This document shows, in pieces, positions 17,761-56,212 of a DNA stretch of 64,000 nt. A program made the translations under genes and the position numbers. The stretch comes from an uncultured Poribacteria bacterium (GTDB taxonomy: Bacteria; Poribacteria; WGA-4E; WGA-3G): assembly GCA_958296135.2 (NCBI GenBank), contig CATQHZ020000001.1, forward strand, positions 1,504,001-1,568,000, read 5' to 3'. The notes under the pieces are model-generated. The model searched no databases. It had not been told where the DNA came from and worked only from the letters and a program-made list of their open reading frames with translations. Each line of letters opens with the position of its first letter. The first letter of the stretch is position 1.

Positions 17761-19152
17761 GACGTTCCTAGCCCCCGAAAATCGAGCCACATCGTGGTAA
17801 AAGCGGATTTATCGTGATAAACGCCAACATAAGTGTTACCGTGTTGGGCAATGATATCACCGCCAGCGCATTGCCCACCTTGTGATAAAGGCAAACACGG
17901 CATACGGGAACACCTCATGAAAACGCACAATATTGCACTGCGCCCGACAGCGGCACAGGTTACCCAATTCCATCAGCACGCGGGCTATCGCCGATTTGTC
18001 TATAACGCTGCTTTGTCCGATTTCAAAGCAGGCTTAGCTGAAGGCGAATGGCGAAACGGCCGCACGTTGCGCACTCGGTTTAATGCCGTGAAGGACGCGC
18101 AGTTTGCGTGGCAGCAGCCGCTCATTGCGCGTGTTGCATCACATGCCTTCGATGATTTTAACACGGCGTGTCAACGGTGGAAAAACAAACTTGCCAAGTT
18201 TCCAAAGTATAAGCGGAAGTCGGGAAAGCAGTCCTTCCGCGTTGACAATAAACGTAACGCCATAACTTGTGATGGCAAGCGGCTTTTCCTGCCGAAGATA
18301 GGCTGGGTGCGGACGTTTGAAGCGTTGCGGTTCAAAGGCGACGTGATGCGCGTAGTGATTAAGAAGCGAGGGCATCGTTGGTTTGCATCGGTGCTCGTCG
18401 AAACCATGCCACTAGCCAAACCCGATTTACGCGGTTTGCCTACCGTGGGCATCGATGTGGGTATCAACACCCTCGCCACTTGCTCTGATGGACGCACCTT
18501 TGGAAACCCACGCGCCTTGGCCCGTTATCAACGTCAACTTTGCCGTGCGCAACGCGCCCTGAGTCGTTCAGTCTATCGCAGTCAGAATTGGTGGAAGAAG
18601 AAGGAACGTGTTGTCCGTATCCACTATCGCATCGCTTGCATCCGTGAGGATGCACATCACAAGGCAAGCACGGCGATTGTGCAGGGCGTGTCGGCGATAG
18701 GCATTGAGTCTCTGAACGTCAAAGGTATGCTCAAGAACCGTCGGCTTGCGAAAGCATTGTCGGACGCTGCACTGGGTGGATTCCTCACCAAGTTAAAGAC
18801 GAAGGCACAGGCACTCGGCGTGCGGATTGAGGAAGCCTCTCAGTGGTTCGCTTCATCGAAGACGTGCAGTGCATGCGGACATAAAAAGGATACCCTCACG
18901 TTATCGGAACGTGAGTATCACTGCAGTGACTGTGGGTTGCGGGCGGACCGCGACTGGAACGCTGCTATAAATTTAACCCCCTCGCCGCTGGTTTGACGGA
19001 GAGGTATGGGTGTTACCTCTCGTATCCGAGAGTTAATACCTTAAACGCTTGTGGAGCTCGTGTCAGACTTCGTTTGGAAGCAGTGAGTGTTGAAGCAGGA
19101 ACTTTAGAAATCGGACATAAGTATCCAGATATGTCTCGATTTCAGGGAACAG
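17761..19152 (+). mobile_element. tnpB-only IS607/IS1341-like element
   Basis: Both ends are homologous to the element at 54533-55162 (left ga..t.ctagc.cccgaaaatc; right tgaagcaggaactt...hairpin...ttc.gggaacag); no tnpA; boundaries +/-2 nt. Confidence 0.75.
17917..18996 (+). CDS. tnpB: RNA-guided endonuclease TnpB
   Basis: N-terminal HAGYRRFVYN; RuvC-I VGIDVG, RuvC-II IGIESLNV, Zn finger CSAC...CSDC, RuvC-III DRDWNAAINL; catalytic D-E-D intact. Confidence 0.92.
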   Translation: MKTHNIALRPTAAQVTQFHQHAGYRRFVYNAALSDFKAGLAEGEWRNGRTLRTRFNAVKDAQFAWQQPLIARVASHAFDDFNTACQRWKNKLAKFPKYKRKSGKQSFRVDNKRNAITCDGKRLFLPKIGWVRTFEALRFKGDVMRVVIKKRGHRWFASVLVETMPLAKPDLRGLPTVGIDVGINTLATCSDGRTFGNPRALARYQRQLCRAQRALSRSVYRSQNWWKKKERVVRIHYRIACIREDAHHKASTAIVQGVSAIGIESLNVKGMLKNRRLAKALSDAALGGFLTKLKTKAQALGVRIEEASQWFASSKTCSACGHKKDTLTLSEREYHCSDCGLRADRDWNAAINLTPSPLV

Positions 19153-52845: not shown

Positions 52846-54483
52846 ATGAAAGCATCTGAACTCACTATCAAATGTCTCGAAAACGAGAACGTTGATTACA
52901 TCTTCGGGATACCGGGCGAGGAAAATCTGGATTTAATGGACGCGCTCTTGGAATCCCCAATCCAGTTTATTCAGACGCGCGATGAACGCGGCGCGGCCTT
53001 CATGGCAGATGTCTACGGCCGCCTCACCGGTAGAGCCGGGGTCTGCCTCGCTACACTCGGTCCGGGCGCGATGAATCTTGTCACGGGTGTGGCGGATGCC
53101 AATATGGATAGGGCCCCCGTGGTGGCTATCACTGGGCAAGCCGGGCTGGACAGGATGCACAAGGAATCGCACCAATACATGGATGTCGTCTCCGTTTTCA
53201 AGCCGATGACAAAGTGGAATACGCTGCTGCATCTGCCGGAGATTATTCCGGAAGCGATTCGCAAGGCGTTCAAGGTAGCAACAGCGGAGAAGCCGGGCGC
53301 GACGCACATTGATTTTCCTGAAGACCTGGCGAAAATGCAGATTATCGGCGAACCGGTTCCTCACGATTTTCCGAGTGACGCTGAACCGGTCGATGCATGT
53401 TTGGCACGCGCCGCGCAGCTCATTCAGGACGCGAGGCAACCGATTATCCTCGCAGGAAACGGGGTTGTCCGGCAGGGTGCCTCCCGAATTCTGACAGAGT
53501 TTGCGGAAGCCACTAACATCCCGGTTGCGCACACGTTCATGGGCAAAGGGTGCATCCCGTGGACGCATCCGTTGTCCCTCCTGACCGTGGGGTTGCAAGC
53601 GCGCGATTTTGTCTCCTGCGGATTTGACCGGGCAGATTTGGTGATTTCCATCGGATATGACATTGTGGAATACCATCCGCGTCTCTGGAATCCTGGGCAC
53701 GATAAGAAAATTGTCCATATTGACACGGAACCGAGCGAGAGTGATGCAGCTTATGTCACCGATGTTGAGATGGTGGGCAATATTAAGCATAGCCTCACGT
53801 GTCTGCTCGCGCAGGGGATTCAGCCGAAGGACCCGGCCTATGCCTCCGATACGCTGCGGAAAATTATTCTAGCTCAGATAACAGAACACCGCGACGACAA
53901 GGCGTTTCCGATGAAACCGCAAAAGATTTTGAGCGACATCCGTTCCGTGCTCGCCGAAGACGACATCCTCATCTCCGATGTCGGCGCGCATAAAATGTGG
54001 ATTGCGCGGATGTATCCGTGCTATCAACCGAATACGTGCATCATTTCCAACGGCTTCGCCTCCATGGGCATCGCGGTGCCGGGGGCTTACGTCGCGAAAC
54101 TTATCTATCCCGAACGCAACTGCTTAGCAGTCTGCGGCGATGGCGGTTTCCTGATGAACTCACAGGAATTGGAAACAGCAGTGCGTACCGGTGTCCCGTT
54201 CGTCACGCTCATTTTCAATGATGAGGCCTACGGCTTAATCGAATGGAAGCAGATGAACGCTTTCGGCAGACCGGCACACATTGACTTTACGAACCCTGAT
54301 TTTGTGAAGTATGCCGAGGCATTCGGTGCAAAAGGATACCGTGTGCAAGGGAGTGACGAATTGGTGCCGATTCTCAAGGATGCTTTCAGGCAGGCAGTGC
54401 CCTCTGTCATCGATTGCCCTGTCAATTACGCCGAAAACCTGCGTTTGACAGATGAACTTGGAAATTTGACGTGTCCTATCTAA
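52846..54483 (+). CDS. Acetolactate synthase large subunit-like TPP enzyme
   Basis: FGIPGEEN, TLGPGAMNL, SDVGAHKMW, GDGGFLMN...ND. Confidence 0.9.
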   Translation: MKASELTIKCLENENVDYIFGIPGEENLDLMDALLESPIQFIQTRDERGAAFMADVYGRLTGRAGVCLATLGPGAMNLVTGVADANMDRAPVVAITGQAGLDRMHKESHQYMDVVSVFKPMTKWNTLLHLPEIIPEAIRKAFKVATAEKPGATHIDFPEDLAKMQIIGEPVPHDFPSDAEPVDACLARAAQLIQDARQPIILAGNGVVRQGASRILTEFAEATNIPVAHTFMGKGCIPWTHPLSLLTVGLQARDFVSCGFDRADLVISIGYDIVEYHPRLWNPGHDKKIVHIDTEPSESDAAYVTDVEMVGNIKHSLTCLLAQGIQPKDPAYASDTLRKIILAQITEHRDDKAFPMKPQKILSDIRSVLAEDDILISDVGAHKMWIARMYPCYQPNTCIISNGFASMGIAVPGAYVAKLIYPERNCLAVCGDGGFLMNSQELETAVRTGVPFVTLIFNDEAYGLIEWKQMNAFGRPAHIDFTNPDFVKYAEAFGAKGYRVQGSDELVPILKDAFRQAVPSVIDCPVNYAENLRLTDELGNLTCPI

Positions 54484-54490
54484 ACGTGGC

Positions 54491-54520
54491 TTGCAAAATT
54501 GCAGGCTATCATGTTACAAT
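54491..54520 (+). promoter_or_regulatory. sigma70 promoter (presumed mtnA promoter) immediately before the SD and the inserted element
   Basis: TTGCAA-18 bp-TACAAT with TG extension, then AAAGGAG at 54526-54532. Confidence 0.55.
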
Positions 54521-54532
54521 ACAAGAAAGGAG

Positions 54533-55162
54533 GAGAGTGCTAGCGCCCGAAAATCCGAGTAAATCGATTGAATTCTCGGTAAGTCTCGTTAATTCGTAAC
54601 ATATCTGATTTAAGTAGTTTTATCTCTCAGGTGAGAGGATGGCGAACGGAGCGTGAAGAGCGTTTCCTGCTGCACGATACCAAGAGGCAGGCGTAATGTC
54701 CTAACCCCCCGTGTGAAGCGGATTAATAGTCGGTGGTGCGAATGCATCGCTGACGGTGGAGGGGGCCGTAAGTCCGACGCGATTCCCTGCCGATTTTTGC
54801 GTAGGTAGTTTGTAATAACAAACTACCGAAGATGTGCTGTTTGGCTTTCGCAAACAGCACTGCGCAAAAATCGGAGAAAGGATTGTTTCGCTGCAGTATC
54901 TAGAACTACAAAGAAAACGTCGCGGCTGGTTTGACCGAGACGCAAAACGCCTGTGGAGCTCGCGTAAGACCTCGTAGTATTCGCATTTCTCCGATTTTGA
55001 CGCAGTGTTATTCGCAAAGCCGAATAACACATCTTCGGCATGCTTGGCTTTCGCAAGCATGCCTACGTCAAAATCGGCAGGTGCGTTTCGGAGGCGGTAA
55101 GTGATGAAGCAGGAACTTAGAAGTCTCGACTTATCTCGATCTGTTGAGACTTCGGGGAACAG
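54533..55162 (+). mobile_element. Non-coding IS607-like derivative carrying an orphan omega-RNA-like scaffold
   Basis: Both ends and the scaffold (ctggtttgac, aaacgcctgtggagctcg, tgaagcaggaactt, ttcggggaacag) align with 17761-19152; no tnpA or tnpB ORF. Confidence 0.7.
54786..55081. repeat. Inverted pair of about 95-bp three-way-junction palindromic units
   Basis: 54786-54879 and 54986-55081 are inverted homologs with a shared outer stem, a GAAGAT junction and covarying inner hairpins. Confidence 0.8.
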
Positions 55163-55174
55163 ACAGAAGCCACT

Positions 55175-56212
55175 ATGGCAGTCTCAACAATTGAATGGGC
55201 AGCTGGCAGAATTCGGATGATCGATCAGACACTGCTGCCCACTGAATTTAAGCAAATTTATTGCGATGACATCGCATCGGTGTGGGAAGCGATTAAATCT
55301 CTGCGCGTGCGCGGTGCCCCCGCTATCGGCATCGCCGGTGCACTCGGAGCTGTCCTCGGAATTTGGGATTCCACTGCGGCAACTTATGACGTATTCGCAG
55401 CGGAACTGAAATCCGCAACGAATTATCTGGCGACCTCGCGCCCGACAGCCGTTAACCTGTTCTGGGCACTAGACCGGATAAACCGCACGGCGGCGGAAAA
55501 CAGCCACCTTGAAATTCCCGCGCTCAAAGAACGGCTACTGGCAGAAGCACAGGAAATCATTGAGGAAGATAAGGCGATGTGTCGCGCCATCGGGCAGCAC
55601 GGGCTGGCGTTGTTGAATGAAAACGATACGATTCTGACGCATTGCAACGCCGGCGGCTTGGCGACATCCGATTACGGCACGGCGTTGGCTGTCATGTTCA
55701 GCGCGCACGAAGCCGGGAAGAATATCCAGGTCTACGCCGATGAGACGCGTCCCCTCTTACAGGGCGCGCGCCTGACAACGTGGGAATTGATGCAGGCCGG
55801 CATAGACGTGACACTCATCTGCGACAACATGGCGGCACAGGTGATGAAAGAAGGCAAAATCCAGTGCGTTATCGTCGGTGCCGACAGAATCGCTGCGAAC
55901 GGTGACACGGCGAACAAAATCGGCACTTACAATGTCGCTATCCTCGCCGAAGCGCACGGGATTCCGTTCTATGTTGCCGCGCCTACTTCTACCTTGGACT
56001 TCGCTTTGAAAACCGGCGATGAGATTCCGATCGAGCAGCGCGCCGCTGCAGAGGTAACAGAAGGGTTCGGCAAGATGACAGCCCCTGAAGGGGTGAAGGT
56101 CTACAGTCCCGCGTTTGATGTCACGCCGGCGGCGTTGGTTACGGCGATTATCACGGAGAACGGAGTCGCACGGCCGCCCTATACGGAGAGTCTGAGTGCG
56201 TTTCGGGAATAG
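55175..56212 (+). CDS. mtnA: S-methyl-5-thioribose-1-phosphate isomerase
   Basis: IDQTLLP, VRGAPAIG, SRPTAVNL, THCNAGGLAT, ETRPLLQGARLT, GDTANKIGTY. Confidence 0.95.
   Translation: MAVSTIEWAAGRIRMIDQTLLPTEFKQIYCDDIASVWEAIKSLRVRGAPAIGIAGALGAVLGIWDSTAATYDVFAAELKSATNYLATSRPTAVNLFWALDRINRTAAENSHLEIPALKERLLAEAQEIIEEDKAMCRAIGQHGLALLNENDTILTHCNAGGLATSDYGTALAVMFSAHEAGKNIQVYADETRPLLQGARLTTWELMQAGIDVTLICDNMAAQVMKEGKIQCVIVGADRIAANGDTANKIGTYNVAILAEAHGIPFYVAAPTSTLDFALKTGDEIPIEQRAAAEVTEGFGKMTAPEGVKVYSPAFDVTPAALVTAIITENGVARPPYTESLSAFRE

Follow-up and report, generated by a model that had tools for sequence, protein, structure and literature searches.

A predicted TnpB guide-RNA element without protein genes, of putative IS607 type, between the Shine-Dalgarno sequence and the start codon of mtnA in an uncultured Poribacteria bacterium

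In the IS607 systems described by Ren et al. (2024; PMC11061315), TnpB works with RAGATH-18-derived right-end element RNAs (reRNAs) lying outside the coding sequence, the transposon-adjacent motif (TAM) is 5'-AGGAG in 18 of 22 strains, and guides of published TnpB systems are given as 16-20 nt long. For an IS607 IStron, the serine recombinase TnpA(S) has been described as acting through a core dinucleotide that stands at both junctions (10.1101/2023.11.20.567912). Elements without any open reading frame (ORF) are also known: Meers et al. (2023; 10.1101/2023.03.14.532601) report ORF-less palindrome-associated transposable elements (PATEs) whose omega RNAs are acted on in trans, and an ORF-less PATE with IStron ends has been shown for the IS605-family IStron of C. 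difficile (Zedaveinyte et al., 2023; 10.1101/2023.11.20.567912). Both the trans use of omega RNAs from ORF-less elements and the AGGAG TAM are already in print. Here we describe a related arrangement in a window of 64,000 nt from an uncultured Poribacteria bacterium (positions 1,504,001 to 1,568,000 of contig CATQHZ020000001.1, assembly GCA_958296135.2), in which an insert, M1, separates the Shine-Dalgarno sequence of an mtnA-like gene from its start codon. The sequence supports the view that M1 encodes no protein and carries a complete TnpB guide-RNA scaffold, the 3' end of which abuts a would-be guide flank.

M1 occupies positions 54533-55162 on the plus strand (630 nt), between AAAGGAG (54526-54532) and the ATG of mtnA (55175), and the distance from the Shine-Dalgarno sequence to the gene now amounts to 642 nt. 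The AGGAG at 54528-54532 is the TAM, its terminal AG being the putative recombination core. A non-coding insert of 630 bp had been proposed here by a first-pass annotation made from the letters alone; it is real, and its ends are now fixed by the alignment of 15 copies and by an empty site in a genome of the same genus (G002). The right end reads GGGGAACAG and is followed by the flank ACAGAAGCCACT and then by the mtnA ATG. We place the last base at the first ACAG (55162) and not at the second (55166), because 15 copies of two families, M and T, end in GGGAACAG, a remnant (O1) ends in GGGGAACAG and two autonomous elements (A1 and A2) end in AAAGGAACAG, with unrelated sequence after each. Excision would leave AGGAG, 12 nt and ATG, as had been suggested; the alternative residue of 8 nt, which takes the second ACAG as the end, is excluded by the shared right ends. 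The longest ORF within M1 (119 aa, minus strand, 54701-55060) crosses nested hairpin units that another copy, M6, lacks.

The description of M1 as a protein-less orphan is right as to the missing protein and wrong as to its isolation, since M1 is one of seven copies of a transposable family in the searched genome (G000; 5.19 Mb in 4 contigs). M1 to M6 are full-length and M7 lacks the left end; over the segments aligned by BLAST, M2-M6 are 91-98% and M7 87-91% identical to M1. A second family, T, consists of eight tnpB-only copies, whose frames are all open and whose proteins are 92-95% identical to that of T1. T1 itself (17761-19152, plus strand, 1392 nt) lies in the window, 36 kb from M1, and holds tnpB (17917-18996) and a scaffold (18980-19152). 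Its TnpB matches solved TnpB structures (8exa and 8h1j, E = 4e-46; 8iaz, E = 3e-45), and its alignment to them shows the motifs GIDVG, IESL and DRD.

The likeness of M1 to T1 at the left end and in the 3' scaffold, noticed in the first-pass annotation, is borne out. The left end of M1 (54533-54613) shares with T1 the identical run GAAAGGAGGA, followed by CTAGC.CCCGAAAATC, and M1 matches the T copies in BLAST at E = 1e-13 to 1e-14, with further support from the covariance model described below. The terminal hairpin of M1 (55120-55153, plus strand), directly before GGGGAACAG, was said to differ from that of T1 in sequence while keeping its pairing. Both do fold (-17.3 kcal/mol, z -2.6, in M1; -15.1 kcal/mol, z -4.1, in T1), but GTCTCGA stands in the 5' arm in M and in the 3' arm in T, so that the two are not compensatory variants column by column. 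The T copies and the remnant O1 carry terminal hairpins of differing sequence at the equivalent position.

The junctions and the autonomous relatives point to the IS607 type. All 15 T and M copies finish in GGGAACAG (motif GG[G/A]AACAG), and in the 14 that keep a left end the junction is AGGAG in ten, GGGAG in two, AAGAG in one and GAGAG in one. With A1 and A2 added, every copy with a left end (16 of 16) has AG directly before it, and with O1 as well, 18 of 18 right ends close in AG; the same core dinucleotide is thus found at both junctions, with no target-site duplication. The genome holds three ORFs with a resolvase domain, two of which belong to A1 and A2, autonomous IS607-type elements of 1.85 kb that are 97% identical to each other (C1:3567171-3569024 and 4836167-4838024; L099:277-2130 and L100:277-2134). 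Their TnpA (207 aa) combines a Resolvase domain (PF00239, 63 bits) with a MerR/HTH_17 domain, as in an IS607 TnpA, M1 itself encoding none. Their left ends are 94% identical to those of M over 32 nt (in M1, the first 32 nt of the GAGTGCTAG... stretch) and their right ends read ...AAAGGAACAG. Their TnpB (390 aa) is divergent, with 24% identity to T1, and in the printed sequence its C-terminal region has no CxxC pairs such as those of T1. A Y1 (HUH) transposase as partner finds no counterpart: PF01797 gives only two weak matches genome-wide (45 and 30 bits), at unrelated loci not linked to M or T ends.

On this evidence the M and T lineage is of IS607 type, with a serine recombinase and an AG core, and its present-day mobility is putative. 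An assignment to the IS200/IS605-PATE family with a GAGGA TAM had been considered and was dropped on the RAGATH-18 lead, the serine-recombinase elements and the gap-free alignments to empty sites. M occurs only in this genome among 112 genomes of the family, and TnpB proteins of T/U type in 92 of the 112 (E up to 1e-60). The remnant O1 (C1:4423283-4423367) has a T-like right end, scaffold plus GGGGAACAG, lacks the left end and shows a third sequence variant of the terminal hairpin; the ATG of a 279-aa Laminin_G_3 protein begins 9 nt downstream of it. The two weak Y1_Tnp matches, in frames of 274 and 226 aa (C1:3734478-3734807 and 4791155-4791397), might be transposases associated with repetitive extragenic palindromes (REPs).

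Uninterrupted sites in sister genomes show that M1 and T1 are insertions. The first-pass annotation had suggested a comparison of mtnA upstream regions: in G002 the mtnA leader is whole (AAAGGAAATAGAAACGACTATGG) and aligns without a gap to the joined flanks of M1, and by our own count 19 of 23 bases of its ...TACAAGAAAGGAAATAGAAACGACTATGG match AAAGGAG + ACAGAAGCCACTATGG. At mutS, T1 parts AAAGGAG from AACGAT-ATG; without the element, the leader joins CACTGAAAGGAG to AACGCTATG in G001 and AAGGAG to AACACTATG in G002, the common pattern being ...AAGGAG followed directly by AAC(G/A)CTATG. Both M1 and T1 are therefore inserted exactly after AGGAG, and the empty sites carry a single AG. In contigs assembled from four DNA runs (one sample, from which the assembly may derive), flank contigs enter M1 from both sides, and the depth is higher within the repeat. 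As a separate observation, T1 puts 1392 nt between the mutS start codon (19159) and its Shine-Dalgarno sequence, where G001 and G002 have an intact AGGAG-6 nt-ATG; that lowered MutS could make the strain a mutator is speculation. GC-rich REP-like hairpins (GCGCGCTTACAAAGCGCGCCTACCGG) flank M6 (L008:1440-1480), and two hairpins of this kind take up the mtnA leader of G001 (L035).

The placement seen at mtnA and mutS recurs through the genome, in line with the earlier suggestion of several insertions at ribosome-binding sites. In 11 of the 15 T and M copies (M1, M2, M3, M6, M7 and T1-T6), a co-oriented ORF of 100 aa or more starts 4-12 nt after the right end; the same holds for 1720 of 10263 AGGAG sites of the genome (16.8%), which gives a binomial probability of about 2e-6. 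The exceptions are M4, with a start at +30 that has its own GGAGG, M5, with a 59-aa ORF at +6, and T7 and T8, which lie close to the 3' ends of open frames. O1 (+9, 279 aa) and A2 (+12) conform and A1 does not; A2 follows AGGAG, and the ATG 12 nt after its right end is that of a MoCF-biosynthesis gene. Among 13 further downstream ORFs, nine have Pfam domains that begin near residue 6-26 (Macro, TPP enzyme, M24 peptidase, ABC ATPase, PhyH), and M copies that are nearly identical stand before unrelated genes (HEPN/nucleotidyltransferase, PhyH and a DUF4398 protein). Elements of the other tnpB families U and V and of a further protein-less family, N, end in ...GCGG and do not adjoin start codons. 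Since AGGAG is at once the Shine-Dalgarno core and a strand-specific TAM, surviving insertions would lie between ribosome-binding site and start codon, and we infer that the TAM itself, together with the loss of insertions inside genes, produced the pattern. In other genera, tnpB relatives (L119 in G080, L121 in G094) end in ...GAACAG with an ATG 5-6 nt on; insertion between the Shine-Dalgarno sequence and the start codon may be common in this bacterial family.

The scaffold of M1 (54918-55162, plus strand; 155 nt without a nested unit) begins at the helix that spans the tnpB stop codon in T, U and V elements: with a profile of tnpB 3' ends, nhmmer aligns to M and N only from this helix on (54918-54944 in M1), reaching 1e-23 on M6. 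It is colinear with the T scaffolds once a nested 90-nt insertion, obscured in the MAFFT alignment, is recognised. A covariance model (R1), of the kind proposed in the first-pass annotation together with a count of orphans, was built from 19 scaffold cores of T, U, V, X, M and N (alignment A4; 91 positions, 20 pairs), and its search of the genome (E up to 0.01) found 42 scaffolds. By comparison of coordinates with the list of tnpB genes, 32 stand directly 3' of tnpB and ten are orphans (M1-M7, N1, N2 and O1). M6, which lacks the unit nested in the scaffold, scores 90.7 bits, and the lower score of M1 (40.9 bits, E = 2.6e-6) is explained by the 90-nt element in its central loop. The M1 scaffold thus shows homology to TnpB omega/reRNAs and ends at 55162, which positions the flank as a would-be guide (55163-55182, by position only; it overlaps the mtnA start codon). 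A non-autonomous guide-RNA cassette, as had been proposed, is the reading favoured by a complete scaffold without protein. The part of the core with the motif CCUGUGGAG...GAAGCAGGAA gives a weak match to RAGATH-18 (RF03064); this match led us to the literature on IS607 TnpB, where the AGGAG TAM is published. In the window, Rfam finds no RAGATH-18 at the gathering threshold.

The first-pass annotation had paired the RNA with the TnpB encoded at 17917-18996. Core identities argue for another partner: the M6 core is 84.8% identical to T6 and 82.0% to T4, against 78.9% to T1, 67-69% to U and 57-64% to V. Therefore, the likeliest protein partner of the M RNA would be a T-family TnpB of T6/T4 type rather than the copy in the window.

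Between the left end and the scaffold, the M copies carry a stretch of about 210 nt that had escaped the first-pass annotation, as had two nested hairpins, one of them inside the scaffold loop. In M1 this domain spans 54614-54909 on the plus strand (about 208 nt without the nested unit that breaks it); its closing helix pairs GUAGUUUUA with UAGAACUAC, and in the RNAalifold model 9 bp close the domain, GUAGUCUUA/UGAGACUAC. The same domain is present in family N, whose ends (GGGCTCGGTGCAGTGGCG ... ACAGAGCGG) are U/V-like, which is not found at ribosome-binding sites and which has two copies here (C1:2911xxx and 3280xxx; L018:1267-1719 and L019:1267-1723) and nine (L076-L084) in OY282383.1, a metagenome-assembled genome of an uncultured Poribacteria bacterium. 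In that other genus the sequence is 65-79% identical, with the same architecture of 5' domain and scaffold. The N copies of OY282383.1 carry a different nested hairpin (GGTATTTACCCTGCAAAGCAGGGCGAATACC).

Structure counts were made on an alignment (A3) of 17 rows from only three to four lineages. Its 98 pairs are paired in 95.9% of cells (shuffles, 90.2%), and 24 of them have changed on both sides, 12 in the domain (helices 1-14) and 12 in the scaffold (helices 15-19 and 21), as expected of a conserved structure. None of 500 shuffles reaches the observed values, and slid controls are 31-54% paired with two to five pairs changed on both sides. The whole M6 RNA has a thermodynamic z-score of -0.5, which is not significant. 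One-base indels between M and N argue against coding. These counts indicate that the domain preceding the scaffold does fold as RNA.

The domain also has a narrow distribution. In the genome, nhmmer finds it only in the nine M and N loci and in no tnpB element; BLAST finds it in two of 176 genomes of the phylum and gives no match in phage and plasmid collections; a pattern scan of species-representative genomes returned nine loci, all in OY282383.1; and Rfam scans of M1, M6 and N1 returned no family for it. Several candidates were set aside. A remnant of tnpB coding sequence was rejected, as blastx reached only E of about 0.6 and the tnpB 3' profile aligns only from the scaffold on. A weak nhmmer match at C1:1068532 (E = 0.02), where no Rfam family is found, was treated as chance. 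A metagenome pattern scan gave 13 loci; the profile matched four of them, and only over about 30 nt of the pattern itself, and these too were taken as chance. The domain is carried both by M, with its AG core and AGGAG target, and by N, which is of GG type, and by none of the 32 tnpB-linked scaffolds. On these grounds it is conceivable, though we hold this only tentatively, that it represents a new functional RNA class, confined to TnpB-dependent elements without protein genes; with AGGAG targeting, these elements would be guide-RNA parasites of 5' leaders. In cis, the domain may do what the context of the tnpB mRNA otherwise does, for example by freeing the guide from read-through transcripts, by a stabilising effect or by attracting TnpB in trans. 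Another possibility is that it lessens the damage done when a ribosome-binding site and its start codon are separated. If the left and right ends of M paired, the Shine-Dalgarno sequence and ATG could be brought together, and by eye only 6 bp of such pairing are seen.

Two foreign hairpins interrupt M1. Unit 1 (54788-54875, 88 nt) lies in the loop of helix 14 of the domain, and M6 and M7 lack it exactly there; unit 2 (54990-55079, 90 nt) lies in the variable loop of the central stem of the scaffold, and only M6 lacks it. Both are palindromic, with an outer stem and two inner hairpins each. They belong to a family of mini-elements of 88-95 nt with a CCGAAGATG/ATCTTCGG core, which insert in the loops of other repeats and in each other; M2-M5 hold further units nested within units, up to three levels deep in M5. 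BLAST matches of at least 50 nt define 25 loci, 11 of them within M copies. Mini-elements are also found in the left ends of T3, T5, T6 and T8, and solo or other loci include C1:16694-16784, 203000-203092, 3122188-3122280 and 4732687-4732779. Unit 2 is present at the same point in six of the seven M copies; the spread of M must therefore have followed its acquisition. The loop holding unit 2 is of different lengths in different families. In ISFba1, disordered scaffold regions, among them the loops of stem-loops 1 and 3, could be deleted or mutated without detectable effect (PMC11061315), and unit 2 may sit in the equivalent loop. In this regard, the nested hairpins constitute a natural test of how far a TnpB scaffold loop tolerates insertion.

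Taken together, these findings make it likely that M1 is a protein-less, non-autonomous IS607-type element that is moved by a recombinase and the RNA of which is used by a T-family TnpB in trans. The serine recombinase would move the element, via a circular double-stranded intermediate, into the AG within AGGAG; with AGGAG serving as both Shine-Dalgarno core and strand-specific TAM, surviving insertions would stand in 5' leaders in sense orientation, where the host promoter would transcribe the element RNA. A T-family TnpB made elsewhere would load the M1 RNA, which is plausible, and with the 3' flank as guide would cut the emptied site (AGGAG + ACAGAAGCCACTATGG...), whereupon the element would be copied back. 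The would-be cleavage target of the M1 RNA is AGGAG + ACAGAAGCCACTATGGCAGT. As to transcription, a consensus scan finds a putative promoter, TTGCAA-18-TACAAT, at 54491-54520 on the plus strand (9 of 12 positions match, and a TG precedes the second hexamer), preserved in G002; it is a consensus match only, and the sole one in 54380-55300, where 1.2 are expected by chance. The same scan finds no sigma-70-like site inside M1. Upstream of the promoter-like site ends, at 54483, a TPP-enzyme gene resembling acetolactate synthase; downstream of M1, the mtnA-like gene (55175-56212, plus strand) encodes 345 aa of the IF-2B family (Pfam PF01008, E = 4e-91).

Several observations weigh against this view. 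The T elements lack a transposase, and only two copies of tnpA(S) share the left end. A foreign hairpin of 90 nt breaks the scaffold loop in six of the seven M copies, M1 included, halving the R1 score, and this unit could disable the M1 RNA. RAGATH-18 matches M6 with 22.3 bits (E = 0.1) against a gathering score of 44.9, which is a resemblance only. The structure on which covariation was counted was derived from the same alignment, its 17 rows representing three to four lineages. The enrichment before start codons may reflect the survival of tolerated insertions and not targeting. Finally, the contigs assembled from the four DNA runs show no empty-site joint across 54532/55163; contigs drop rare variants, and the result is uninformative on excision.

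Some of these points are shared by the view that M1 is a dead relic, an immobile and decaying deletion derivative whose RNA is used by no TnpB and whose conservation merely records recent copying. The foreign hairpins inside the scaffold with their lower model scores, the loss of the left end in M7, the survival of only a right part in O1 and the restriction of M to one of 112 family genomes, which leaves little time for selection to show, would all suit such a relic. However, the same RNA architecture recurs in N, with other ends and in another genus, at 65-79% identity and with 24 compensatory pairs, which is unexpected under neutral decay; the nested unit occupies a loop whose length differs among families, and copies bearing it still multiplied, to six in number. 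We consequently regard a dead relic as improbable.

Two further explanations take the position in the leader as their starting point. The sense orientation exactly between Shine-Dalgarno sequence and ATG, a last base that is G, a closed multi-helix RNA domain and the existence of IStrons in the IS607 family (10.1101/2023.11.20.567912) would fit an ORF-less IStron, in which the domain would be a self-splicing, group I-like core that restores the spacing between Shine-Dalgarno sequence and ATG. Yet Rfam scans of M1, M6 and N1, with E up to 10, give no match to the group I intron (RF00028) or to a ribozyme. The base before the element is G, and the usual group I 5' splice site is the U of a U-G pair. 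Moreover, T elements occupy the same kind of site without the domain, and N carries the domain away from ribosome-binding sites; self-splicing is accordingly very unlikely. That the insert was domesticated as a regulatory 5' untranslated region of mtnA would agree with a structured RNA in the leader downstream of a promoter-like site, but near-identical copies stand before unrelated genes, mtnA of G002 lacks the insert and Rfam returns no riboswitch or leader family, so that we give this idea hardly any credence. A mobile, protein-less IS607-type element whose RNA depends on TnpB in trans is the reading we retain.

Compared with ISFba1-type IS607 TnpB systems as described, the lineage of M1 shares the AGGAG TAM, a serine-recombinase TnpA in the elements with the same left end, and a scaffold that starts with a helix across the tnpB stop codon and otherwise lies downstream of it; unlike them, M1 lacks both tnpB and tnpA, scores below the Rfam gathering threshold and carries an extra RNA domain of about 210 nt before the scaffold. 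With the PATEs of Meers et al. (2023), M has in common that it is protein-less, keeps both ends, is present in several copies and has an omega RNA needing TnpB in trans, whereas its ends and partner transposase are of IS607 type, with a serine recombinase and an AG core. Like the IStrons of Zedaveinyte et al. (2023), M places a structured RNA before the omega RNA and is inserted in sense in transcribed DNA, but it has no group I intron signature and its base at -1 is G. Similarly to miniature non-autonomous transposable elements (MITEs), M is short, non-coding and multi-copy, with ends borrowed from an autonomous element and with nested insertions; unlike MITEs, it has no terminal inverted repeats and no target-site duplication, and it carries a guide-RNA gene.

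The text of PMC11061315 contains neither 'Shine' nor 'ribosom', and in the literature, supplements outside, we found no paper linking the AGGAG TAM to systematic insertion between Shine-Dalgarno sequence and start codon, no IS607-type family of protein-less guide RNAs and no report of an extra RNA domain. The systematic insertion at ribosome-binding sites, the covariation-supported domain of about 210 nt in two protein-less families and the nested hairpins of 88-90 nt thus appear to be new. The published AGGAG TAM is the Shine-Dalgarno core, and the consequence is visible here, at mutS and mtnA among other genes: at such sites the guide RNA has to be transcribed from the host promoter, and the host gene should be translated less well. 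Beyond the systems described so far, the conservation of this domain in copies without genes suggests that elements reduced to a guide RNA are not mere leftovers of deletion, and the domain is a compact candidate for a new functional RNA.

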